Assembly (NCBI GenBank): GCA_965224245.1
Contig: CBDCYW010000026.1
Span: 1 to 12,327, forward strand
Length of the DNA: 12,327 nucleotides
Direction of reading: 5' to 3'
Source of the DNA: Candidatus Eiseniibacteriota bacterium
GTDB lineage: Bacteria > Eisenbacteria > RBG-16-71-46 > CAZAMP01
Below are positions 1-12,327 of this stretch, one piece after another. The position numbers were made by a program, and so were the translations under genes. Below the pieces are notes generated by a model. That model saw only the letters and a list, made by a program, of their open reading frames with translations. It searched no databases and was not told the DNA's origin. Numbering within the stretch: position 1 is the first letter of the stretch; each line of letters begins with the position of its first letter.

Positions 1-51
1 CTTGATGTCCATCCAGCGCTCCATCTCGGGGGTGTTGAGTGCTGGGGACAT
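1..51 (-). CDS. 5' end of a leftward gene, possibly an excisionase-like HTH protein (partial)
   Basis: The minus strand from ATG at 51 reads MSPALNTPEMERWMDIK and runs off the window. ERWMDIK resembles the RW-x-x-x-E/K start of HTH_17/Xis-like proteins. An alternative in-frame ATG lies at 108. Only 17 codons are visible. Confidence 0.4.
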   Translation of the reverse strand, partial: MSPALNTPEMERWMDIK

Positions 52-183
52 GGACGCTCTGAACCCGAAGTAAGTCCAGAGTGAACAGAGATTGTCGATC
101 CGAGTCATGCAATCGACCTATAATCCTCGATGATGTGCTTCGACACGGCAACTGAGTCTGGAGACCGCGCCAGCGGAGCCCGG

Positions 184-206
184 GTCCCCTACCGGGATAA
201 GGGGAC
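184..206. repeat. Inverted repeat GTCCCCT-N9-AGGGGAC in the divergent intergenic region
   Basis: GTCCCCT at 184-190 and AGGGGAC at 200-206 are exact reverse complements. Confidence 0.7.
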
Positions 207-229
207 ACGTTCTCGGAATCGCGGGACAG
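197..229 (-). promoter_or_regulatory. Bipartite motif copy 1 (CTGTCCC-N16-GTCCCCTTAT), putative element-specific promoter facing left
   Basis: The reverse complement of 197-229 is CTGTCCCGCGATTCCGAGAACGTGTCCCCTTAT. It has the same two boxes and the same spacing as 3997-4029. Confidence 0.6.
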
Positions 230-239
230 GGAGCGTACG

Positions 240-1023
240 ATGGGACACACGCTTCTTGGAAAGCTACCTCGCACGAGAGCATGGCTGAGTATCATCGGGG
301 CGATCGCCGGGGTTCCCCCGTCGAAGGAGATCGCAGCCGCTACACTTGACGCGACGATCAAAGACTCTTGAGCTGGCGAAGTCAGATGCTGGCTTTCAGT
401 CCATGTTGTGGCTTCTCATACAGCTACCCATCGCGGCACGAAGCGGACGATTCCAGGAGGCGGCCGGCGACCTGGGGATCTCCGTCCCGAAGTCTCCCTT
501 ACTCCCCGACCTCCTCGCTGCAGTGATGTCGCACGTCGAGGATGCTCGCTTCCGTGGGGGACAACCGTCACTGACCTCGGGGAACTCGCACAGCGATCCG
601 GGGTGCGGACGCTCGTGGAGGCGGTTCGAACCTCTGGACCGGACCTATTCCCATCTTCTCCCGGGGCAGCCGTCTCCGCACTCGCGGAGCAGGCGACGCC
701 CCCGGCACTTCGGCGCCCTCATGCGGGAGTTTCTGGCCGACTTCACGGCGCGATTCATAACCTACCACCTGGATCGGCGGCTTCAGGGCCACGTCGGTCC
801 CGCACGTCGTTTCGCCAACTTGGGAGCGCGCCGCCAGTTCCAGCATGAGTTCCATCGGCACTGCAATGAGGCTGCTGCAATCACGCAAACGTTTGCGGAG
901 GAGTGGTACGGCAAGCAGCTCCGCCTCGGATCGGTCAGTCCCCGAGGTGCTGGTGCCTTCGGGTTCGTCGCGCTGAAGAAGCTCCAAGGAGAGATAGTCC
1001 GGGGGGCGCGCAGTCATGAGTAG
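240..1023 (+). CDS. QueC-associated hypothetical protein (QatB-position partner), ~260 aa after frame repair, N-terminus MGH
   Basis: ATG at 240 follows GGGAG and reads MGHTLLGKLPRTRAWLSIIGAIAG...IAAATLDATIK. It joins TLELAKSDAGFQSMLWLLIQLPIAARS (+1 at ~361), then TDLGELAQRSGVRTLVEAV...LAEQATP (-1 at ~556-560), then RHFGALMREFLADF...VALKKLQGEIVRGARSHE* (+1 at ~699-703). The repaired length of 783 nt is divisible by 3. The stop overlaps the next ATG. Confidence 0.7.
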
Positions 1024-2944
1024 AGCTCCGAACGCACAAGCTGTGGTGTGGCCACCCAAACGGACGAGGTCGACGAAGGGGGTTGGATCTCGCGACGCAC
1101 GGCCCCGAACAGAATGTTGTTCTGCAGTTCAAGAACATCACTGAGAAACTCGCCGCGAATGCCGATGCTCGACTACTGGACCTACTTGAGATCGCCGCGT
1201 ACGTCTAAGCCGCCGATTCGGCGGGTGCCTCGCGGGGGGGACACTCAGCGGGGGGGCGGATCGAACTGGCGACGAGATTTGGCATTCACAATTCCCGTGC
1301 GAGATCACACGTTCTGGAGTTCGGATGACATCGCAACCGCACTGCAAGACCTGCAGCGGTTCCTGAGCGAGGATCGAGTTCAGTTCGATTTCGTCCCCGC
1401 GCAGCAGCTGCCAGCTATGGAAACGTACTTCAATTTCCCGGGCCAGCCACCGGCCGGTGTCGGTGTCGAGCGTGTTCTACTATTCTCGGGAGGGCTGGAC
1501 TCGCTCGCGGGGGCAATCGAGAGCTGCCAATCCTGTGCGAGCGGCGTCGCGCTCGTGAGCCATCGCGCAGCCTCAAAAGTCTACTCGCGTCAGGCAGGGC
1601 TGGCGGCTGAGCTGAAGGAACGATTCGCTCAGGACGTCCGACACATTCCCCGTCTGGGCGCACCTGACCGCGGGGGGCGGAGGCGAGAGAACGCAGCGAA
1701 CCCGCACGTTTCCTCTTCACCGCACTCGGGTTTGTCGTCGCTAAGCTCTTTTGGTTGCTCAGAGCTGTACATCCACGAGAATGGGGTGACGAGTCTGAAC
1801 CCGCCAATGGACGAGGATGTCGTTGGAACACGGGCGACTTCGATCCACCCATCCGCGCTCGCTGATGCTTCTCCAGGCAGTGTTTTCCAATGTTGCGGGT
1901 CAGGAGTTCAAGGTTCTCAATCCGTTTATCTGGCGCACGAAAGGCGACGTGATCCAGTCAATCCGAGACGCGGGCTTCGCCAATCTCATAGCAACATCCG
2001 TGAGCTGCTCGAACACGTTCGAGGCCAAGGTGGAACAACCTCACTGTGGTACGTGGCTCTCAGTGTGTCGATCGGCGGATTGCGGCCTTGGCAGTTGGGT
2101 GCGGAAATGATGAAGATCCCGCATCAGGCTATCGCAAGGACATGTGGCTCGACGTAGTTGAGGGCAACAAGAGGCGAATGATCCTGGACTTCATCGATCG
2201 GGCACATCGGCTCGGTGAGGAGGCCGACGGTGGGCTTGTCGCGGACCCCTCTGTCCTCCAAGCGCATGAGCCACTGAAGTCGCTGGGGTGCTCCCGAGTC
2301 CACGAGAGAACGGCCAACCTCTTCCAGAGACACGGAGAGGAGGTCGGCAAGGCAGTTGAGATCGTCGTTGCCGACGCTGTCCCGACGCTCACCAGTGGAG
2401 AAAGTACCCGTCGGTACAGTCCTTGGCGTGCTGCTGCTGACACGCACGGTTGTTGGGAGTGACATCATCAGCGATGAGCCAGACGTCGCGCTTGTCCTGG
2501 AGCCCGTGACGGACGCCACGCGGTGCTTTGCGTCCGTGGGAGTGGTCCGAGGATCCGCGGAATTCCATGATGTGCAGTTCGATGTGGGAAGCGCACAGCT
2601 CAGCATACTTCTACCCTTGTTCAGGACGACGACGACGCTATCTGAGAAATGTTGGGCGGCAGTACAGGTCAGTCAAGTTGCATCGGAACTCGAGGATTGG
2701 AGTAGCAGAGGGTGGGTGCAGCTCGGCGGCGCAGACGCTCAAAACCCCGAGTATCGAGTGAGTCGGTATTGGAACACGCTCCACGAGCAGCTCAAGAAGA
2801 AGGCAGCGGACATCGAGAGACTGCCTGTACGAACAGGGCCACAGTAGGGATCGATGGCTATGCATCAAACTCCCCCCGGAGAGGATCCAGTGCCCGTCAA
2901 AGACGGCGGAGTTCTTCGTTGGCCTTATCGTGAGAGGGCGCTGA
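1016..2944 (+). CDS. Long-form QueC-family (7-cyano-7-deazaguanine synthase-like, QatC-like) PP-loop protein with C-terminal extension, ~639 aa after repair; frameshifted in this sequence
   Basis: The repaired reading contains LLDLLEIAAYV(TAA at 1206-1208)AADS, NWRRDLAFTIPVRD, the PP-loop LLFSGGLDSLAG, VALVSH, ERTQRTRTFLF, HENGVTSLN, TRSTHP, NPFIWRTKGDVI and the Zn site SCSNTFEAKVEQPHCGTCSQCVDRR. Nine +1 indels lie at about 1031, 1223, 1651, 1712, 1752, 1840, 2055, 2401 and 2802. The end is uncertain: TAG at 2845-2847 without the last shift, TGA at 2942-2944 with it. Confidence 0.85.
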
Positions 2945-2957
2945 TGCCTATTAAACG

Positions 2958-3039
2958 TTTCATAACCCTTGGCGATCATAGGTGCCTCGACAGCAACACG
3001 ATACAACCTCTCGAACATCTTTTCATACCCTTCTATGAA
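2958..3039. promoter_or_regulatory. Operator-like TCATA repeat cluster upstream of the sigma-like gene
   Basis: TTTCATAACCCTT at 2958-2970 and TTTCATACCCTT at 3021-3032, an extra TCATA at 2976-2980, and the palindrome TTCATA-N6-TATGAA at 3022-3039, all in AT-richer intergenic DNA. Confidence 0.5.
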
Positions 3040-3061
3040 CCCGCCGGTTTCCCCAACACTA

Positions 3062-3089
3062 GCGACCGTCCAATCGGACAACCGGTCGC
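3062..3089 (+). other. GC-rich stem-loop in the leader of the sigma-like gene
   Basis: GCGACCG at 3062-3068 pairs with CGGTCGC at 3083-3089. Inner GTCC (3068-3071) pairs with GGAC (3076-3079) around an AATC loop. No U-tract follows. Confidence 0.4.
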
Positions 3090-3128
3090 GATCGGATCGA
3101 CATTCCTTCAGCTTTGGAGGTGGGCACG

Positions 3129-3954
3129 ATGCGACATGCATCGATCCCAGGGGGGCGGCGTATGCCCCCGTCATGTGGCCGATCGACGTGTGTTGTGGCA
3201 GACCCAGCAGCCAGAACGCGCGATTGGGTGTGTCGAGAGGTTCGGCGCGGGAACCTATGATGCCTTGCTGGGCTCGCTGCGGATCGGGGAGACATACGAG
3301 TGCTGGTTGCGATATCAGCACTCACGTGCAGCAGACACCGCATCGGGACCCCAGCGTGGATGAGATCTATGCAGCGATCATCCGCGCGTCACAGTCTGCG
3401 GGCGATGATCGATGGCGCGTGCTGTCGTTGTACGTTGGGATCGGACTTCTTGAGTCGTTGTTCCGGAAGAAGCGACCATTGGGACGATGATCCCGATGAC
3501 CTGTGGCAGGAAATGATCCTGCAGTACTACGCGGTCATTGATCGTTTCAATCTGTCTCGGTGCCGACACCGCCTTGCGCTGCGAATCTACCTCGACGTGA
3601 TCCATCGGGCACATCGCCGATACCTGCGGGTATGGGGGAAGGTCGACCCAGGAGGTCCTGGTCGATCCCTCCCAGTTTGAGGCGGGGCTCGGCGCTGCGG
3701 AGGACCCCGCCTTCCTTCGCTTCAAGCTGAGTCGGAACCGGCAGCACGCCATGGGCGAGCTTCTGGATCTTCACCGCTTTAATGTGATCGGTCGGGCCGA
3801 GTTCTTCATCTTGCTCGGGACCCGCGTGGATCGGATGTCGCTCAGGGATTTCTGCCGGGGAACCCCCATGACGTACGAGGCAGTCAAGAAGCGGCGTCAA
3901 CGGGCTGAAGCGCGGGTCGCGGCCTTCCTGCGTCGTACGGCAAGCGGGTCATAG
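3129..3954 (+). CDS. Sigma-70-like (region 2 plus region 4 HTH) transcriptional regulator, ~273 aa after repair; frameshifted in this sequence
   Basis: RBS GGAGGT at 3116-3121, ATG at 3129 (MRHASIPGGRRMPP...). Four +1 shifts (~3250, ~3307, ~3477, ~3639) join TYDALLGSL, RDPSVDEIYAAII...DDRWR...LESLFRKKR, HWDDDPDDLWQEMILQYYAVIDRFNLSR (region 2-like) and AEFFILLGTRVDRMSLRDFCRGTPMTYEAVKKRRQRAEARV (region 4-like HTH). The repaired 822 nt is divisible by 3. Confidence 0.7.
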
Positions 3955-3996
3955 AGCATTAGGTTGGGCCGACGTCGGAAGAATCGGCGACAGAAG

Positions 3997-4029
3997 CTGT
4001 CCCCGAATCTCCCGACGCGGTCCCCTATT
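3997..4029 (+). promoter_or_regulatory. Bipartite motif copy 2 (CTGTCCC-N16-GTCCCCTATT), putative promoter of the replication operon
   Basis: CTGTCCCCGAATCTCCCGACGCGGTCCCCTATT lies between the sigma-like gene and the RBS AAGGAGG (4054-4060) of ORF 4067. It matches 197-229 on the minus strand. Confidence 0.6.
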
Positions 4030-4066
4030 GATCTATAGGAAGCTCTAACTGAAAAGGAGGTCCGAC

Positions 4067-4327
4067 ATGCAGGGTGAGAAAGGGCTGGCGTTGATCGACG
4101 GTCTGCTCAAGGAGACAGCGCTGTTAGTCGGCGGCCTGGCGGCGGCGGACTGCGCGAATACCGTCTTCGTCGAGGGGCTGATGGAGGGGCTGGAGATAAT
4201 TCGGCATCGGGCGATACGGCGCCTGGGGGAGAACGATCTGGACGGACGGAAGGCAGATCTGAGCCGGAGCGGGGCCGAGCCTCATCCTGCCATCGAGGAG
4301 TTTCTCATGTCGCTGGAGAGAGCATGA
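4067..4327 (+). CDS. Hypothetical protein, 86 aa, first gene of the replication operon
   Basis: Strong RBS AAGGAGGT ending 5 nt before the ATG. The stop overlaps the next start (ATGA at 4324-4327). No motif recognised. Confidence 0.75.
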   Translation: MQGEKGLALIDGLLKETALLVGGLAAADCANTVFVEGLMEGLEIIRHRAIRRLGENDLDGRKADLSRSGAEPHPAIEEFLMSLERA

Positions 4328-5121
4328 GAGCCGCGTCGGCCAGGCTAATCGACCAGATATCTGCCGGGCCCAGTCCCGCACCCAGGCGCGTGACGGTGTA
4401 CGGCACACAGGGCGTCGGCAAGTCGACGTTTGCAGCCGGCTCTCGGAAGCCCGTGTTCCTGCAGACGGAGGACGGGCTGGGCGAGATTGACTGCCACAAG
4501 TTTCCCCTGGCGTCGTCATTCGAGGAGGCGATGCGGGCGGTGCGGGAGCTGTACATGGAGGATCACTCCTTCGAGACGATTGTCGTCGACTCCCTCGACT
4601 GGCTGGAGCGGTTAATCTGGGCGAATGTGTGCGTCGAGCGGAGTGTGAAAAGCATCGAAGACATCGGGTACGCCAAGGGCTACGTCTTCGCGCTCGCGCA
4701 ATGGCGAAGCTTCCTGGACGGCCTCACCGCACTCCGCGGCGATCGAGGGATGACGATCGTCCTGATCGCGCACGCCCGGATCGAGCGCTTCGAGAACCCC
4801 GAGACCGACACCTACGACCGCTACGTGCCCCGGCTCCATCGGCTGGCCTCCCAGCTGATCCAGGAGTGGTGCGACGAGGTGTTCTTCGCCACCTACAAGA
4901 TCTTCACGAAGCAGACGGACGAGGGCTTCAACCGGAAGCGGACCCACGGCATCGGCACCGGCGAGCGGATCCTCCGCACGACCGAGCGCCCGGCGCACGT
5001 GGCGAAGAACCGGCTGAACCTTCCCGAGGAGTTGCCGCTGGAGTGGTCGGCCTATGCCCGGTACCTGACCGAGCCGACCGCGACAGGGCAGGTGGACGTC
5101 CCGAAACAAGGAGCGCACTGA
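4324..5121 (+). CDS. Phage AAA_24-family ATP-binding protein (Sak4-like)
   Basis: Walker A YGTQGVGKSTFA, FLQTEDG, Walker B IVVDSLDWLE, IGYAKGY, LIAH, EWCDEVFF and C-terminal AKNR. Confidence 0.9.
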   Translation: MRAASARLIDQISAGPSPAPRRVTVYGTQGVGKSTFAAGSRKPVFLQTEDGLGEIDCHKFPLASSFEEAMRAVRELYMEDHSFETIVVDSLDWLERLIWANVCVERSVKSIEDIGYAKGYVFALAQWRSFLDGLTALRGDRGMTIVLIAHARIERFENPETDTYDRYVPRLHRLASQLIQEWCDEVFFATYKIFTKQTDEGFNRKRTHGIGTGERILRTTERPAHVAKNRLNLPEELPLEWSAYARYLTEPTATGQVDVPKQGAH

Positions 5122-5123
5122 CC

Positions 5124-5579
5124 ATGGCGGATCTGAACGGTTTCAACGCGAACGAGGTCGAGCCCACGTCGGACTTCGAACCTCTGCCGGCCGGCAAGTA
5201 CGTGACCGCTATCACGGACTCGGAGATGAAGGCCACGAAGGCAGGAACCGGCCACTACCTGGAGCTCACGTTCCAGGTGCTCGAAGGTCCCTGCAAGAAC
5301 CGGCTCCTCTGGTCCCGACTCAATCTGGACAATCCGAATGCCCAGGCGGTGCAGATCGCCCACGGGGAGCTGTCCGCGATCTGCCGGGCGGTGGGCGTGA
5401 TGCAACCGAAGGACTCGTCCGAGCTACACGACCGTCCTCTCGTGGTGACCGTCAAGTGCAAGCGACGCGACGACACCGGCGACATCATGAACGAGGTCAA
5501 GGGGTACGCGCGACGCGACGTCGCGGTGAACGCTGGCGCGGGTGCAATGAGCGACGAGGCGCCCTGGAAGCGGCCGTGA
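5124..5579 (+). CDS. DUF669-family phage protein (putative ssDNA-binding protein), 151 aa
   Basis: The likely start is ATG at 5124 after AAGGAG, not 4629. It reads MADLNGFNANEVEPTSDFEPLPAGKY...LELTFQVLEG...LWSRLNLDNPN...NEVKGY...APWKRP. Its position after AAA_24 is typical. Confidence 0.85.
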   Translation: MADLNGFNANEVEPTSDFEPLPAGKYVTAITDSEMKATKAGTGHYLELTFQVLEGPCKNRLLWSRLNLDNPNAQAVQIAHGELSAICRAVGVMQPKDSSELHDRPLVVTVKCKRRDDTGDIMNEVKGYARRDVAVNAGAGAMSDEAPWKRP

Positions 5580-7285
5580 TCGAGCTTCGTGCGTATCAGG
5601 AAGACGCGGTCGAGGCGATCTACGACCACCTCCGGCATCGCGATGACAATCCGTGTGTGGTGATCCCGACGGGCGCGGGAAAAACTCCGGTGATGGCCAC
5701 CGTGTGCCGGGATGCCGTGGGGCGCTGGAAGGGTCGTGTGCTGATCCTCGCCCACGTGCGAGAGCTGCTCGAGCAAGCGGTGGAGAAGCTCCGGCTCGTG
5801 GCGCCGGAGATGCGGGCGAAGATCGGCGTCTACTCCGCGGGCCTACGAAGGCGCGATACGGGCGAGCCGATCATCGTCGCCGGCATCCAGTCGGTGTATC
5901 GGCGCGCCTGCGAGCTCGACGCGTTCGATCTCGTCATCATCGACGAGGCGCACATGATCCCGGCCGAGGGAGATGGCCGATACCGCACCTTCCTGGCCGA
6001 GGCGCGGGCGGTCAATCCGAACCTGCGTGTGGTCGGGCTCACAGCCACGCCGTTCCGCCTGAAGAGCGGCATGATCTGTGGCCCCGAGCACGTGCTCAAC
6101 CACATCTGCTACGACGTCGGGGTCAAGGAGCTGATCGAGCGCGGGTATCTCTCACCCCTCGTTACCCGTGCCGGGTGTGAGGTGATCGATACGTCCGCTC
6201 TCCGGGTCCGGGCCGGTGAGTTCGTAGCCGGTGAGACCGAGCGCCTGATGGACACCGACGAGCGCGTCATCTCGGCCTGCCAGGAGATCGTGACCGAGAC
6301 GCGCCTCCGGCGCTCGGTCCTCGTATTCGCCAGCGGTGTGGCACATGCTGATCACGTCGCGGAGGTGTTGAGGCGGACCTCCGGCGAGGACGTCGGCGTC
6401 GTGGTAGGCGAGACCCCCGGCGAGGAGCGAGGTCGCCTCCTCACCGCATTCAAGGCGGGCACGCTGAGATACCTGGTCAACGTCAACGTGCTGACCACCG
6501 GGTTCGACGCGCCCAACATCGATTGCGTGGCGATCGTCCGACCGACCCTCTCACCGGGACTCTACTACCAGATGGTGGGGCGGGGCTTCCGGCTTCATGC
6601 GGGCAAGGAGAACTGCCTCGTCCTGGACTTCGGTGGCAACGTGGCGCGCCACGGACCGGTGGACGCGATCCGTATCGAGGAGAAGACCCGTCGCGCGGGC
6701 CACGAGGCACCGCTGAAACAGTGTCCGGAGTGTGAGCGGGAGGTCGCGGCGGGATGCGGGACTTGTCCGAACTGCGGTCACGCGTTTCCGCCGCCGAGCC
6801 GTCGCGAGCACGATGCGACCGCGACGTCCGAGGACATCATCTCCGGCCACGTCACCATCATGCGGCACCTCGTCCAACGCACCTGCTACGCCGAGCACCA
6901 GAAGCGGGGAGCGCCCGAGGACGCGCCTCGGACACTGCGGGTGGACTATCAAGTCGGGCTCACGGAGATCCACTCCGAGTGGATCTGCTTTGAGCACGAC
7001 GGATACGTACGCGCGCGGGCGGAACGGTGGTGGCGCCGCCGATCACATGCCCCGGTCCCGAGCTTTGCGGCCGAGGCCGAGGTGCTCGCGCGCGCCGGGG
7101 CGCTCTGCGAGACCACCGCCATCAAGGTGCGCCATACCGCGGGCGAGGCGTTCGACACGATCCTAGGTTACGCACTGGGGCCGAAGCCCACATGGCGGGA
7201 GCCCGGCTGGGATCACGACGATGGGACCGATGCCGCGCTCGTGGGGGCGCTCGGCGCGGGTGGCGACCATGACGTGCCATTCTGA
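5576..7285 (+). CDS. SF2 DEAD/DEAH-box helicase (RadD/YejH-like phage helicase) with Zn finger
   Basis: GTG start in a GTGA overlap. Motifs: Q motif LRAYQ, PTGAGKT, DEAH, GLTATPFR, VLTTGFDAP, QMVGRGFR, and CPEC...CPNCG. Confidence 0.92.
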   Translation: MIELRAYQEDAVEAIYDHLRHRDDNPCVVIPTGAGKTPVMATVCRDAVGRWKGRVLILAHVRELLEQAVEKLRLVAPEMRAKIGVYSAGLRRRDTGEPIIVAGIQSVYRRACELDAFDLVIIDEAHMIPAEGDGRYRTFLAEARAVNPNLRVVGLTATPFRLKSGMICGPEHVLNHICYDVGVKELIERGYLSPLVTRAGCEVIDTSALRVRAGEFVAGETERLMDTDERVISACQEIVTETRLRRSVLVFASGVAHADHVAEVLRRTSGEDVGVVVGETPGEERGRLLTAFKAGTLRYLVNVNVLTTGFDAPNIDCVAIVRPTLSPGLYYQMVGRGFRLHAGKENCLVLDFGGNVARHGPVDAIRIEEKTRRAGHEAPLKQCPECEREVAAGCGTCPNCGHAFPPPSRREHDATATSEDIISGHVTIMRHLVQRTCYAEHQKRGAPEDAPRTLRVDYQVGLTEIHSEWICFEHDGYVRARAERWWRRRSHAPVPSFAAEAEVLARAGALCETTAIKVRHTAGEAFDTILGYALGPKPTWREPGWDHDDGTDAALVGALGAGGDHDVPF

Positions 7286-9494
7286 AACGGAAATGGAGCC
7301 GATGCGAGGGCGGAACCCTGACTTGCTCGAGGCGGCACTGCGCTATGCGGACCTCGGATATGCGGTCTTTCCGTGCTGGCCCGGCGCCAAGGAGCCCATG
7401 ACCCCGAACGGGTTCAAGGACGCCACGACGGACGCGGCGACGATCCGAGCCTGGTGGACGAGGACGTCCAACGCGAACGTGGCCATGCCCGCGGCGGGGC
7501 TACTTGTCGTGGACATCGACGGACCCGACAACTCGTGGCCAGGCGAGCGTGATCTGTCGGGCGCGCCTGTCTCACGTACGCCACGCGGGGGTCGCCACCA
7601 CATCTTCCGCCAGCCGGCCGGGCGCGGGTGGCGCAACACGACTAGCCGGATCGCGCCGCGGGTCGACACGCGCGCGGACGGCGGGTACATCGTCGTGCCG
7701 CCGTCACGGTTCGATGGGAAGCCCTATGAATGGGCGGAGCCCCTCGGTTTGCCACCAGACGGTCTTCCGGAGCCGCCGGCGTGGCTCGTGGCTGAGCTCG
7801 ATGGGCAGCTGCCGCTGGGGTTCAACGGGACGGGCAATGCCAATGGGACTCCGCTGAGCGACACGCCGTGTAGATCGCCCGCGTGGCCACCCGTCGCGAG
7901 CGTTGAGAACGTCATCCCCTCCGGTCAGCGAAACGACACCCTGGCACGGCTCGCGGGCTCGATGCGTCGGGTTGGCATGGGCCCCTACGAGATCACGGCG
8001 GCGCTCCTGGAGACGAACGCACGGCGTTGCACGCCCCCGCTGCAGGATGCCGAGGTCCGGAGGATCGCGAAGAGCATCGCGCGGTACGACCCGGACGATG
8101 TGACCGTCGCGGTGACCGAGAACCACTGGGCTCGGCACGTGGCTCCGGCGGACGACACCAGTCGGCCGGACGAGATCGCCGACGATCCGGGCTCTCTGCC
8201 CGAGGATCTGCTGCGGGTCCCGGGGTTCATTTCCGAGGTGATGGATCACTGCCTGGCCACCGCGCCCTATCCGAACCTCGTGGCGGCCTTCGGCGGTGCG
8301 CTGGCGCTCCAGGCGACACTGGCAGGTCGGAAGGTGCGCGACCCCGGTGACAATCGAACGAACCTCTACCTCCTGGCCCTCGCGCACTCGTCCGCGGGGA
8401 AGGAGCGGCCCCGGAAGATCAACGCCGAGATCCTGCACACCGTCGGCCTCTCGAGCCGTATCGGTGGACGGTTCGCGTCGGGCGAGGGCATCCAGGACGC
8501 GCTCTTCACCGAGCCGTGCATGCTGTTCCAGACCGACGAGATCGACGGGATGCTCCAGTCGATCAACAAGGCTCGCGATGCCCGCCACGAGGGGATCATG
8601 GGGACGATGTTGACGCTCTACTCGTCAGCGAATTCGGTGTTCCCGATGCGGCGCAAGGCCGGCGGAGAGTCACCCGGGGCGATCGACCAGCCGTGTCTGG
8701 TGCTCTTCGGCACCGCGATCCCCAACCACTACTACGAGGCACTCTCCGAGCGCATGCTCACCAACGGGTTCTTCGCGCGCATGATCATCCTCGAGTGCGG
8801 CAAGCGATCACCGGGCCAGGAACCGACCATTCTGCCGATCCCCGATCGCGTCCTGGAGACGGCGAGGTGGTGGGCGGACTTTCGCCCCGACACCGGCAAC
8901 CTCGAAAGCTGGTACCCGGGGCCGCGGACGGTTCCACAGACCGATGCCGCGAGGGCGATCTTGATCGAGACCCGCAAGGAGGCCGAGGCCGAGTATGCGA
9001 GGGCGGAAGCCGCCACGGACGCGGTGGGGACCACGGTGTGGGGGCGCGTCAGCGAGCATGCCCGCAAGCTTGCGTTGCTCCACGCGGTGAGCGCGGACCA
9101 TGAGCACCCGGAGATCGGCGAGGGGGCCGCGGACTGGGCACGGCGCTTCGTCGTTCATCAGACCAAGCGGATGCTCTTCATGGCGCAGGCCCACGTCGCC
9201 GACAGCCCCTTCCACGCCGACTGTTTGAAAGCCATCCAGAAGCTGCGTGATGCCCCCGGCGGAGAACTCTCGCACTCCGTTCTCCTCAAGCGCATGAAGA
9301 CCGACGCGAAGAGCTTCCTGTCACTGATAGCGACGCTCGAGCAGCGAGGCGACATCGTTGTGCGTACGCAGTCGAGTCTCACCAAGCCTGGGCGCTACTA
9401 CCGCCTCGCGAGGTCTCTCCCGCGCACCGAGGATGCGGCTTTGCCTGGGGGTGAACGATCGGGTGAAACCGGCGATGAAGGTGAAAGATCATGA
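7269..9494 (+). CDS. Bifunctional DNA primase/polymerase (Prim-Pol) plus PriCT-1 plus DUF3987-like domain
   Basis: YAVFPC, VVDIDG, TPRGGRHHIF and DTRADGGYIVVPPS (Prim-Pol); GQRNDTLARLAGSMRR...PPLQDAEVRRIAKSI (PriCT-1); AHSSAGKE and LFQTDEID (degenerate Walker A/B). The start could be 7269, 7293 or 7302. Confidence 0.88.
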   Translation: MTCHSETEMEPMRGRNPDLLEAALRYADLGYAVFPCWPGAKEPMTPNGFKDATTDAATIRAWWTRTSNANVAMPAAGLLVVDIDGPDNSWPGERDLSGAPVSRTPRGGRHHIFRQPAGRGWRNTTSRIAPRVDTRADGGYIVVPPSRFDGKPYEWAEPLGLPPDGLPEPPAWLVAELDGQLPLGFNGTGNANGTPLSDTPCRSPAWPPVASVENVIPSGQRNDTLARLAGSMRRVGMGPYEITAALLETNARRCTPPLQDAEVRRIAKSIARYDPDDVTVAVTENHWARHVAPADDTSRPDEIADDPGSLPEDLLRVPGFISEVMDHCLATAPYPNLVAAFGGALALQATLAGRKVRDPGDNRTNLYLLALAHSSAGKERPRKINAEILHTVGLSSRIGGRFASGEGIQDALFTEPCMLFQTDEIDGMLQSINKARDARHEGIMGTMLTLYSSANSVFPMRRKAGGESPGAIDQPCLVLFGTAIPNHYYEALSERMLTNGFFARMIILECGKRSPGQEPTILPIPDRVLETARWWADFRPDTGNLESWYPGPRTVPQTDAARAILIETRKEAEAEYARAEAATDAVGTTVWGRVSEHARKLALLHAVSADHEHPEIGEGAADWARRFVVHQTKRMLFMAQAHVADSPFHADCLKAIQKLRDAPGGELSHSVLLKRMKTDAKSFLSLIATLEQRGDIVVRTQSSLTKPGRYYRLARSLPRTEDAALPGGERSGETGDEGERS

Positions 9495-9666
9495 CCGTGA
9501 ACAGGGCCATCGGAGGTGAAGAATGGTGAAGGATTGTGAAAGAATCGATGCTCTAAGTGTATATATAACAATATATCTCTCTATCTTTCCCTTCTTTCAC
9601 CCATACCCCCCTGCACACCGATATCTCCCTCATTCTGCGCGTGTGTGTGAGGGGGGGGGTGAAAGA
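9451..9666. repeat. Origin-like region: GTGAA iterons, AT-rich core and a long imperfect inverted repeat
   Basis: GTGAA at 9451, 9463, 9481, 9497, 9516, 9526, 9536 and 9659, with inverted TTCAC at 9596. AT-rich TATATATAACAATATAT at 9560-9576. TCTTTCACCC (9593-9602) pairs with GGGTGAAAGA (9657-9666). Confidence 0.7.
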
Positions 9667-9702
9667 GAAGAAACATCTCTCGATCCGCAGGTGGACGCGT
9701 AG

Positions 9703-10791
9703 ATGACTCGCGCAACCACGAGCCTCTGGGCCGCCCTGCCACCCTACATTGGGGGCAAGAGACGGCTGTGCCCGCTCATCTTCCGCGAGTTGGACCACGT
9801 CTTCCCACGCCGCCTCTGGGGCGGTGCCCGGTTCGTCGACGCGTTCGCGGGTGCGTGCTCGGTGGCGCTCTACGCGAAGGCCCAGGGGTTCCTCCACGTC
9901 CACGCGATCGACGTCGCCGAGCGATCGGTCATCGTAGGCAGGGCGCTCATCGCGAATGGCCGCGTGCACCTGACCGAGGCCGATCTCCTGCGCATCACCA
10001 GCGCCGACGTTCGGAGCCCCGGACCGATCGAGGCGTTGTACGTGCCGTCGGTGTTTCCGAAGAACGTCGCCCAGTGGCTGGACCGCGCGCTCGCGACGGC
10101 CGAGGCGACCGCCGACGAGGCCAAGGCGAACCTGATCAAGCTCCTGGCGCTGAAACTCGCCATGGCCGCGCACCCGATGGCGCAGGTCCGGCCTGGTACA
10201 GCACACCGCGTCGCGACCGGTGAACTCGAAGCGATCACCGAGAGCTGCGTGAAGGTCTACATCGACGCCAAGCGGCTCACGAGTCCCGACAAGCTCCGCT
10301 CGATGATGAACGCCATCAACGGCGGCGTCACCGCCGGCGATGGAACGGCCACGAAGGGCAGCGCCATCGACGTGCTCCCGGGCGTGAAGGCGGAGGTCGC
10401 CTATCTCGACCCGCCCTATCCCGGCACGACGGCGTACGAGAAGGAGTTCAAGGTCCTCGACGAGATCCTCGGAGGAGAGTCGATGCCCGTGAGCCCGTTC
10501 AGCCAGTCAGTCGACCTCCTCGAGCCGCTCTTCGAGTCCGCCCGCCACATCCCGATCTGGCTCCTCAGCTACGGCAACGCCGAGCTGTCCGGCGCCGACC
10601 TCGAGGACCGTGTCGCCGCGTACGATCGCGAGACACGCCTGATCGAAATGGCGTACGCGCACAAAGCCAGCGTCGCCCGTGCCGAGACCCGTGCCCGCAA
10701 TCGCGAGCTTCTCGTCGTCGCTGTCGACCCCGAGCACCGACTCATCCAGCGTATCCGTGAGAGGGGGACCGTCGATGCCTTCGAGTCCTAG
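9703..10791 (+). CDS. DNA adenine methyltransferase (D12-class/Dam-like, alpha group)
   Basis: PYIGGKRRL (motif X), DAFAGACSV (motif I) and AYLDPPY (motif IV), in alpha-group order. Confidence 0.88.
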   Translation: MTRATTSLWAALPPYIGGKRRLCPLIFRELDHVFPRRLWGGARFVDAFAGACSVALYAKAQGFLHVHAIDVAERSVIVGRALIANGRVHLTEADLLRITSADVRSPGPIEALYVPSVFPKNVAQWLDRALATAEATADEAKANLIKLLALKLAMAAHPMAQVRPGTAHRVATGELEAITESCVKVYIDAKRLTSPDKLRSMMNAINGGVTAGDGTATKGSAIDVLPGVKAEVAYLDPPYPGTTAYEKEFKVLDEILGGESMPVSPFSQSVDLLEPLFESARHIPIWLLSYGNAELSGADLEDRVAAYDRETRLIEMAYAHKASVARAETRARNRELLVVAVDPEHRLIQRIRERGTVDAFES

Positions 10792-11456
10792 CACCGTGCC
10801 CGAGACGCGTGTCGTCCCCATCGTCGATCTCGTCCCGCACCCGATGAACGCGAACCAGATGCCGCCCGATCTGTTCGAGAAACTGAAGGGTCACCCTGCG
10901 CCGCAACGGTCGGTACCCCGCCGTGATCGTGCGGCCACACCCGAGCGACGATGGGAAGTACGAGGTCATCGACGGGCACCATCGTGCGCGAGCCCTGGAG
11001 AGCCTGGGGCACGAGACGGTGCGCGTGGACGTCTGGCACGTCGATGACACCGAGACGCGGGTGCTTCTCGCGACGTTGAACCGCCTGGAGGGCGACGACA
11101 TCCCCGTGCGCCGGGCCGAACTGCTTCATTCATTGCTGGGATCGATGTCGAGCGCCGACCTCGCGGGTCTGGTCCCCGAGACGGAGGCCGAGATCAAGGA
11201 TCTCCACGCGCTCCTCGAGTTCCCCGCCGGTGACATCGCCGCCCAGCTCGCCGACGAGGCCGCCGAGACCGAGAAGACCCTCCCGGTCGTCCTGACCTAC
11301 GTGGTCCATCCCGAGCACGCGACGCTCATCGCCGATGCCGTCGAGCGGGCCTCGGACGGCATCACCGGACGCGACCGCAAGGCACGAGGCCTTCTGAACC
11401 TGGCCCGCCACTACCTGGAAGGAGCCCCCGATGCTGACGCGCCGCCAGAAGCGTGA
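10775..11456 (+). CDS. ParB/Srx N-terminal domain protein, ~226 aa after repair of one frameshift
   Basis: ATG at 10775 after GAGGGGG: ...VPIVDLVPHPMNANQM...KLKGH. Removing one C at 10894-10896 continues LRRNGRYPAVIVRP...YEVIDGHHRARAL...LLATLNRLEG. Confidence 0.85.
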
Positions 11457-11981
11457 GGAGGCCCGGCGCCTGTTCCTGACCGGCGAGGCGGACTCCAACG
11501 CCGCCATCGCGCGCAAGCTGCGCATGAAGGCACGCACCGTGGCCCGCTATCGCAAGGAAGAGGACTGGGACGAACTCCGCGTGAAGGTCGATCGGCAGGC
11601 GGCCGAGAAGCTCGTCGAGTCGCTGGCGGGTGAGCGGACCAGTCTGAACCTGAGACACTTCCGCTACTGGGACGCCATCCTGGCCCAGGTCGGCGAGGCG
11701 ATGAAGGCCGACGTGGCCCACGGCATCCGAGAGCTGGAACGGCTGACCACATCGTCGAGCGGGTCCAGAAGGGGCAGCGCCTGGCTCGCGGCCTCAGCCT
11801 CACCGGGGAGAACGAAGAGACGATCCGCGCCCAGGCGGCGGCCGAGTCGCGCGCGTTGGTCGATGCGTTTATCGATGCCGTGAAAGCACACGTGCCCGAT
11901 GAGGAAGCGCGCGATCAGATCCGACTCACGGTGCTGGCCAAGCTGCCGCAGCAACCCGAAGAGGCGGACGTCGACGCATGA
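11431..11981 (+). CDS. N-terminal HTH protein, probable terminase small subunit, ~183 aa after repair
   Basis: EEARRLFLTG...AAIARKLRMKARTVARYRKEEDW (HTH). One base is missing at ~11749, after which it reads IVERVQKGQRLARGL...PEEADVDA* ending in an ATGA overlap with the large terminase. Confidence 0.7.
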
Positions 11982-12327
11982 GTGTCCAGCGGTATCTCAC
12001 CGGGCGCCTCATGGAGGTCGTCTCCCCGGCGGTACGCACCCGGAGTCAGCCGCTGGCGAACTGGGCGGTGAGGGAGGTGCGTCTTGACGGCAAGCCGTTT
12101 GCCTTCGCGGGGCATGCGTACCTGCGGGCGATCTACGACGACGTGAGCCCGCACGTCGTGCTCATCAAGGCCGCCCAGATCGGCGGCACGACGTGGGCCA
12201 TCCTGCGGAGCATCCATGCCTGCATGCAGGGCTTCACGTGATGTACCTGTTCCCGACCCGAAGCGACGTCATCGAGTTCTCGAAGTCTCGCGTGCGCCCG
12301 CTCATCGAGGAGAACGCATTCCTCCAG
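11978..12327 (+). CDS. Phage terminase large subunit, GpA family (5' part, runs off the window)
   Basis: PFAFAGHAYLRAIYDD...VVLIKAAQIGGTT (GpA-type Walker A). One base is missing at ~12232, after which it reads HVMYLFPTRSDVIEFSKSRVRPLIEEN. Confidence 0.85.

Follow-up and report, generated by a model that had tools for sequence, protein, structure and literature searches.

The closest described relatives of the locus treated here belong to the QatABCD system (PMC13279940, PMC13376578, PMC13329287). QatB and QatC alone suffice for defence in P. aeruginosa, and canonical QatB requires an N-terminal glycine motif, MGTS; the effect of its modification by QatC-type enzymes is an open question (PMC13279940). 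The genes qatA and qatD accompany only about one third of the QatC cluster, from which the substrate motifs of canonical QueC are absent (PMC13329287). A mechanistic template is offered by Cap9-CdnD of the type IV cyclic oligonucleotide-based antiphage signalling system (CBASS; 9nto), in which a QueC-family enzyme modifies the N-terminal glycine of its partner. Cap9 is minimal, about 185 amino acids (aa), and keeps the canonical QueC active site (PMC13329287). Here we describe a probable two-gene unit on a contig of 12,327 bases from a Candidatus Eiseniibacteriota bacterium, in which a gene for a small Met-Gly protein precedes a QatC-like gene whose product is predicted to end in a winged helix. 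The whole contig, one of 27 in a 6.9-Mb assembly, is referred to as the window.

The probable two-gene unit and its QatC-like enzyme

In our overall reading, which we hold with a probability of about 0.7, the unit encodes an MGH protein and a QatC-like enzyme of ~640 aa whose last ~165 residues, at nucleotides (nt) ~2450-2944, form a winged helix. A prophage-like element probably carries, at its edge, this QatB/QatC-type pair of genes, which spans positions 240-2944. Its parts are arranged as follows.

240..1020, forward strand: partner gene, QatB-like by position, ~260 aa; located by tblastn with the ~260-aa open reading frames (ORFs) that stand directly upstream of QatC-like genes in related loci
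1016..2402, forward strand: QatC-like core with N-terminal extension, PP-loop (LLFSGGLDS), zinc site and helical extension; located by PADLOC, NCBIfam, tblastn, hidden Markov model (HMM) mapping and frameshift-aware alignment
2403..2487, forward strand, frame 1: linker from the core to the C-terminal domain; collinear with profile positions 463-490 in the frameshift-aware alignment
2488..2805, forward strand, frame 1: body of the winged-helix-like domain (three strands, helix, hairpin, helix, long helix); located by domain HMM, tblastn and invariant columns, with the fold taken from the model of homologue P0135
2826..2944, forward strand, frame 2: probable end of the domain (hairpin and last helix) with the stop codon at 2942-2944; assigned from the best-scoring frame (10.5 bits) and a placement as in relatives

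Pieces of the broken enzyme gene were matched by the PADLOC QatC model at expectation values (E) of 3.6e-22 and 4.7e-8, and by the NCBIfam QatC model (NF041925) at 81.5 and 34.9 bits, which does not reach its equivalog cutoff of 280. The sole QueC signal among 79 stop-to-stop pieces of positions 1-4400 came from Pfam PF06508 on piece 1799-2107, at 15.6 bits against a threshold of 22. The enzyme is thus a divergent QatC, QatC-like and not QueC, and the QueC label given to it in the initial annotation was imprecise. Intact relatives matched PADLOC QatC at E 1e-55 to 8e-59 and scored 18.7-27.7 bits on TIGR00364 (QueC), for which the cutoff is 150.3. The broad Pfam QueC domain model, which spans the whole superfamily, was passed by all 66 intact relatives at E<=0.01. 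Piece 1261-1852 has 826 relatives, and most of the best 120 measure 600-650 aa.

A frameshift-aware alignment of the DNA with a profile of 73 proteins of the window's own subtype scored 464.9 bits and was collinear over nt 1047-2802 (profile positions 9-598 of 643). Combined with tblastn and HMM mapping, it placed the core in reading frames 3, 1, 2, 3, 1, 2 and 3, in this order. The PP-loop, RxRxxxF, ExG, HP, TK and CGxCxxC..RR motifs are all kept in the read-through of the window. QatC signature residues, compiled together with the motifs in section 7 of PMC13329287, are among the invariant columns of the homologue alignment and are mostly retained. The zinc site and the helical segment occupy 2004-2402 in frame 3, directly before the extra domain. 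The start of the enzyme is a guess: a frame-2 ATG at 1016 overlaps the stop of the partner gene, and its use would require one further shift.

The fold was assessed on the model of homologue P0001 (predicted local distance difference test, pLDDT, 86.7), which aligned with QatC of the QatB-QatC complex (9y01_B) over 470 columns at a Foldseek E of 7.9e-22. The window-type enzyme therefore has, as judged from this homologue, the QatC fold of 9y01 and 9y02 over ~470 residues including both the N- and C-terminal extensions, and it shares the PP-loop, zinc motif and signature residues of QatABCD QatC. Beyond this core the P0001 model contains an additional C-terminal sheet, helices and hairpin, with low confidence at residues 476-496, which are equivalent to the linker. 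Canonical QueC (TIGR00364, 2pg3, 3bl5; Foldseek ranks 3-5) has in common with it the PP-loop ATPase fold and the C-terminal zinc cluster, but the QatC-like protein is three times as long and is not adjoined by queuosine genes. Cap9 gave a weak fold match (E 2.5e-3) and differs in having a CD-NTase as its partner and no DNA-binding domain. Compared with canonical QatC (~400-430 aa; 428 aa in 9y01_B, 436 aa in the same genome), about 200 C-terminal residues with the predicted winged helix are additional. The initial annotation held that canonical QueC has no such domain; this proved correct, and canonical QatC does not carry the window-type domain either.

The partner begins with Met-Gly-His at 240 in frame 3, which is open to 362, and a single +1 shift near 355 leads into frame 1 (346-1014). 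Like QatB it starts with Met-Gly, but as MGH.RLG rather than MGTS, and M1, G2 and H3 are invariant in all 30 aligned sequences. An immediate upstream neighbour of ~260 aa accompanies the QatC-like gene in 69 of 80 genome loci and in 74 of 80 viral loci. No QatA-like (PF07693) or QatD-like (PF01026) cluster was present among the 15 neighbour clusters that recur in at least 6 of the 80 genome loci. In this the unit differs from QatABCD, as it does in adjoining integrases on prophages.

The C-terminal domain and its fusion to the enzyme

The ORF at 2356..2847 (forward strand, frame 1) reads ...DVALVLEP...VQFDVGSAQLSILLPLF...VQVSQVASELEDW...NPEYRVSRYWNTLHEQLKKK..., and frame 2 of 2792-2941 reads ...LYEQGHSRDRWLCIKLPPERIQ... 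and LYEQGHSRDRWLCIKLPPERI before terminating at 2942-2944. All peptides quoted in the initial annotation were accordingly found, in frame 1 and then in frame 2. Pfam, PADLOC and NCBIfam gave no match in any frame of 2400-2944. Guanine-cytosine (GC) content by codon position suits both the forward frame and an antisense ORF at 2641-3321, which has the same phase, so homology had to decide. Frame 1 of 2413-2844, used as a phmmer query on 1.84 billion representatives, returned 8 matches at E<=1e-3, the best at 2.5e-9. An HMM built from 8 relatives, with the window excluded, recognised piece 2278-2844 at E 1.2e-23 (77.5 bits); model positions 16-123 of ~168 correspond to nt ~2488-2805, and the model was silent on the other frames and strands. 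The extra stretch of ~180 aa is, by this measure, a real forward-strand domain. In addition, tblastn with the ORF of locus L014 covered 2416-2802 (E 1.4e-13), and residues 501-610 of viral locus L098 matched the domain at E 5e-10. Eight alignment columns are invariant with the window included: G62, L66, W101, G111, D113, R120, W125 and Q131. With tblastn, forward 2278-2844 and reverse 2641-3321 had zero plasmid matches, and a DNA search of the genomes of 41 relatives yielded just two short, chance-like matches.

Among the 131 domain-bearing proteins analysed, full-length fusions number 74; in another 25 the core is truncated at its N-terminus, and 32 are without a core. Each intact fusion is a single ORF of 630-665 aa, with the QatC-like core first and the domain last; further single-ORF fusions are those of L015 (650 aa), L020 (645 aa) and viral L098. 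When longer proteins were searched with the domain alignment, PF06508 was present in 6 out of 6, and in a near-length search (136 matches) it was present in 75 of the best 120. A stop-to-stop ORF of at least 560 aa exists in 79 of 80 viral loci. Error-free homologues thus carry the same fusion as proposed for the window, and in the 74 intact cases the domain is neither missing nor encoded by a separate ORF. In locus L014, an in-frame TAG at 7312-7314 lies between core and domain, and the public record lists a separate hypothetical protein of 180 aa. Most of the 32 coreless proteins are short fragments starting in the linker. About 11 others, 223-449 aa long, have the same domain at their end behind N-termini unlike the QatC core (P0121-P0124, P0128, P0197, P0211, P0239, P0244, P0246 and P0248).

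The fusion is widespread: relatives occur on 152 IMG/VR contigs, and the variant accounts for at least 560 of the 568 pattern matches listed among GTDB species genomes. It is a natural variant in which the system is cut to two genes and the enzyme gains a predicted DNA-reading domain. Public records name such genes "7-cyano-7-deazaguanine synthase" or "hypothetical", and these present names are misleading for the QatC-like fusion genes. Our literature searches on QatC- or QueC-like enzymes with winged-helix or helix-turn-helix (HTH) domains found no paper describing the fusion; in the QueC family survey, HTH proteins adjoin a different cluster.

In loci L004-L083, three or more sequence types can be told apart at the C-terminal ends of the long QatC-like proteins. 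A crude count of tail patterns in these loci gave 30 GYRLNP-like tails, 33 of the ...YDKPLAEHL...Y.P-like type, 3 of the window type and 13 unassigned. A profile of 105 long homologues, mostly of the GYRLNP type, stopped matching at nt ~2399 and left 2400-2944 blank in all frames. A different C-terminal type prevailed in this profile; the homology surfaced only with the right type of domain. Among long relatives, 6 of 66 matched a model of the DpnII-MboI restriction enzymes, and one (P0090) matched sigma-70 region 4.

The domain of P0135, modelled from an alignment of 48 sequences, reached a pLDDT of 87.7 and a predicted template modelling score (pTM) of 0.80. Its elements follow in the order of three strands, helix, hairpin, helix, long helix, hairpin and last helix. 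The order of strands, helices and hairpin put forward in the initial annotation is thus seen in the model of an intact member, and the window-type domain is probably a winged helix of OmpR/PhoB shape. OmpR/PhoB-type winged helices were the best structural matches of the model; further comparison placed ArlR, ToxR, PhoP and SaeR on top, followed by other winged helices. In Foldseek against PDB and BFVD the model had no match at E<=0.001 (the best PDB row had E 0.23, and several of the PDB rows are winged helices), and in ESM Atlas the best score was 0.87, from unrelated families and without a lead. Relative to the OmpR/PhoB/ToxR/CadC domains (BaeR, 4b09; OmpR-C, 1odd), the window-type domain is ~35 residues longer and closes with an additional helix. 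It is fused to an enzyme here, and not to a receiver or membrane domain. OmpR/PhoB-type domains typically recognise direct repeats in DNA.

Frame 1 probably does not reach the end of the domain. Relatives end in ...LYG.RLRP....IPALF, and the frame-2 tail of the window agrees with them in place and order. The initial annotation had postulated a further +1 shift into this tail; frame 2 does outscore the other two frames against profile positions 596-643, yet its 10.5 bits lie within the range of controls (about 10 of 354 control chunks equal or exceed it).

Several observations weigh against our overall reading. The last 45 profile positions, containing the hairpin past the probable shift at ~2824, gave no significant detection in the window. 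Intact relatives (P0039, P0001, P0144 and L027) score 175-212 bits on NCBIfam QatC, under the cutoff of 280, and neither PADLOC, NCBIfam nor the PDB sequences link the partner to QatB. The window-type domain fits none of the Pfam families, and a PDB sequence-profile search with it returned rows at chance level only. Trans_reg_C (PF00486) matched 0 of 48 members at E<=0.1, so that the earlier description as an OmpR-type winged helix holds for the predicted fold order and the best structural matches but fails for membership of the OmpR family by sequence. The GYRLNP-type profile has no match in the window past model position 460. Its frameshift-aware score on the domain was 12.1 bits, compared with a mean of 10.3 (standard deviation 1.4, maximum 15.2) for 60 shuffles and with 9.0-13.7 for other regions of the window. 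Comparison of the window-type and GYRLNP-type domains by hhalign was not significant (probability 4%, E 0.011); the sister GYRLNP type itself gave weak matches to Trans_reg_C and other HTH models in 2 of 66 and 2 of 18 cases. Canonical QatC showed no DNA binding in electrophoretic mobility shift assays (PMC13376578), so that contact with DNA is no trait of the family as a whole; a winged helix can bind proteins too. Finally, the copy in the window cannot be translated as written and is dead or mis-assembled.

State of the assembled copy

The enzyme gene contains seven mapped +1 shifts, near 1231, 1649, 1710, 1765, 1841, 2055 and 2401, and probably an eighth near 2824. The shift at 2055 falls within the codon of a zinc-ligand Cys, and a TAA at 1206-1208 replaces a conserved Tyr. 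Damage within 240-3918 amounts to 10 mapped shifts and the probable one, all +1 and none -1. Other copies of a multi-copy element present on this contig (loci L093, L094 and L096) added four +1 shifts and zero -1, and all 15 shifts seen in the assembly are of the +1 kind. Several of the sites lie in base runs (G7, C4 and G5), and the genes at 4324-10791 are intact.

We slightly favour assembly or consensus errors as the source of the frameshifts. Bacterial mutation is biased towards deletions, and a purely one-sided +1 pattern thus points to insertion-type consensus errors; the pattern suggests that such insertion-biased errors affect mobile DNA in this assembly. Real mutations, which would make the unit a decaying pseudogene cluster in a prophage remnant, are a serious alternative with somewhat less than an even chance. 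They would account for the restriction of damage to 240-3918, next to readable genes at 4324-10791, and for the TAA at the conserved Tyr, which is of the substitution type. In the same direction point the weaker third-position GC of the damaged region relative to the rest of the contig and the conservation of the core, which retains 112 of 161 conserved columns, slightly below the 115-136 of six intact distant relatives. Against decay speak 11 shifts in one direction only and four more in copies of an unrelated repeat, the position of several sites in base runs, and catalytic motifs that are all intact. Alternative genetic code and programmed frameshifting were rejected, as genes from 4324 onwards are normal under table 11 and the shifts have no common motif. 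Regions of mobile elements in this assembly may therefore hold insertion errors, and the present copy is unreadable as assembled.

Proposed role of the winged helix and genomic surroundings

By analogy with QatC-QatB and Cap9-CdnD, the intact enzyme would use adenosine triphosphate (ATP) to attach a 7-deazaguanine-type group to the N-terminal glycine of its partner. The built-in winged helix would then place the enzyme-substrate complex on DNA and could in this way stand in for the missing QatA and QatD. We consider it reasonably probable that the winged helix binds DNA of any kind. If it does, we slightly prefer a function as tether or sensor on the DNA of the phage or the element to plain autoregulation of transcription. 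As modelled, the variant would point to DNA as the place of action, and it offers an experimental handle. A more specific proposal, which we regard as a long shot, is that the long QatC-like proteins are DNA-bound protein-nucleobase ligases, with tagging of the Met-Gly partner coupled to DNA contact and the winged helix parking the enzyme on specific prophage or incoming-phage DNA. If true, a single polypeptide would recognise DNA and also install the protein modification on which early gene expression or abortive defence depends, and the role of QatB modification would become testable in a two-gene system.

According to the initial annotation, the fused domain would turn the enzyme into a transcriptional regulator gated by modification of its partner; in its present form this would be a transcription factor for the unit's own operon or the early genes of the element. 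We regard this as unlikely. The predicted fold does resemble OmpR-type regulators, and relative P0090 has a sigma-70 region 4 HTH instead. Both in the window and in L027, the unit lies between an integrase and sigma-like plus replication genes in the same orientation, and lysogeny control regions occupy this position. No operator was found, however, apart from two repeats that may be due to chance: an imperfect 15-nt inverted repeat at 176-214, 26 nt upstream of the partner start, and a 10-nt direct repeat (TTTCATAACC / TTTCATACCC) with copies at 2958 and 3021, 63 nt apart, just past the enzyme stop. Promoter-like and terminator-like sites in the scan were at chance level, and upstream 8-mers common to relatives may reflect kinship alone. 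The exchange of the C-terminal domain among at least three types argues for a replaceable effector or targeting module rather than a dedicated regulator.

Somewhat more doubtful is a role off DNA, in which the winged helix would contact proteins instead, for instance to form oligomers, to hold the partner or to sense a protein of the phage; winged helices act in this manner in ORC, kleisin partners and NLR proteins. Protein-binding winged helices (ScpB, MukE, JetB-like, NLR WHD and Nse) abound in the structural lists beneath the OmpR rows, and with 133 model residues aligned the domain is ~35 residues larger than the OmpR type (~95-100). The same domain also stands behind the ~11 unrelated N-termini mentioned above. 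Against this, the best matches, and the sole ones over the whole domain, are DNA-binding effector domains, and the long third helix bears invariant or near-invariant R120, K123, W125 and Q131, in a manner that would suit a recognition helix.

It is very improbable that 2400-2944 is non-coding, a separate gene or part of the minus-strand ORF 2641-3321: that ORF, 227 aa long, shares the codon phase and the L014 domain is deposited as a separate protein after its TAG, but homology is confined to the forward strand and 74 fusions are intact single ORFs. The minus-strand ORF was itself rejected as a shadow frame: Pfam, PADLOC, NCBIfam and plasmid searches gave no match to it, and its left part overlaps the domain and its right part a broken 254-aa gene.

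The genes that most often recur next to the unit in the 80 genome loci encode a serine recombinase (27), DUF2924 (17) and tyrosine integrases (9 and 8), and replication genes recur as well. The window is syntenic with L027, sharing a sigma-like 254-aa gene, a 120-aa gene, AAA_24, DUF669 and a helicase. At 3299-3918, the window contains the broken homologue of the L027 254-aa protein, in frames 2, 3 and 1 with two +1 shifts, near 3490 and 3640. Its C-terminus resembles, by eye, an HTH of sigma-factor region 4 type, and no family was matched. It is followed by the gene below.

4091-4324: 120-aa gene, after the 254-aa homologue

Elsewhere in the same genome, contig 11 (21402-25232, L085) harbours an intact canonical QatA-QatB-QatC set. 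Its QatC, 436 aa in length, lacks a winged-helix tail and reaches 293 bits with the PADLOC QatC model. The next gene lies on the opposite strand, and QatD was not seen in the stretch examined.

The right end of the window (9725-12327) belongs to a multi-copy element that includes a D12-type methyltransferase-like ORF at 9703-10791 and an ORF at 11431-11883. At least seven other copies, with 82-89% identity, are distributed over contigs C9, C5, C6, C1, C2, C18 and C15, mostly near contig ends.

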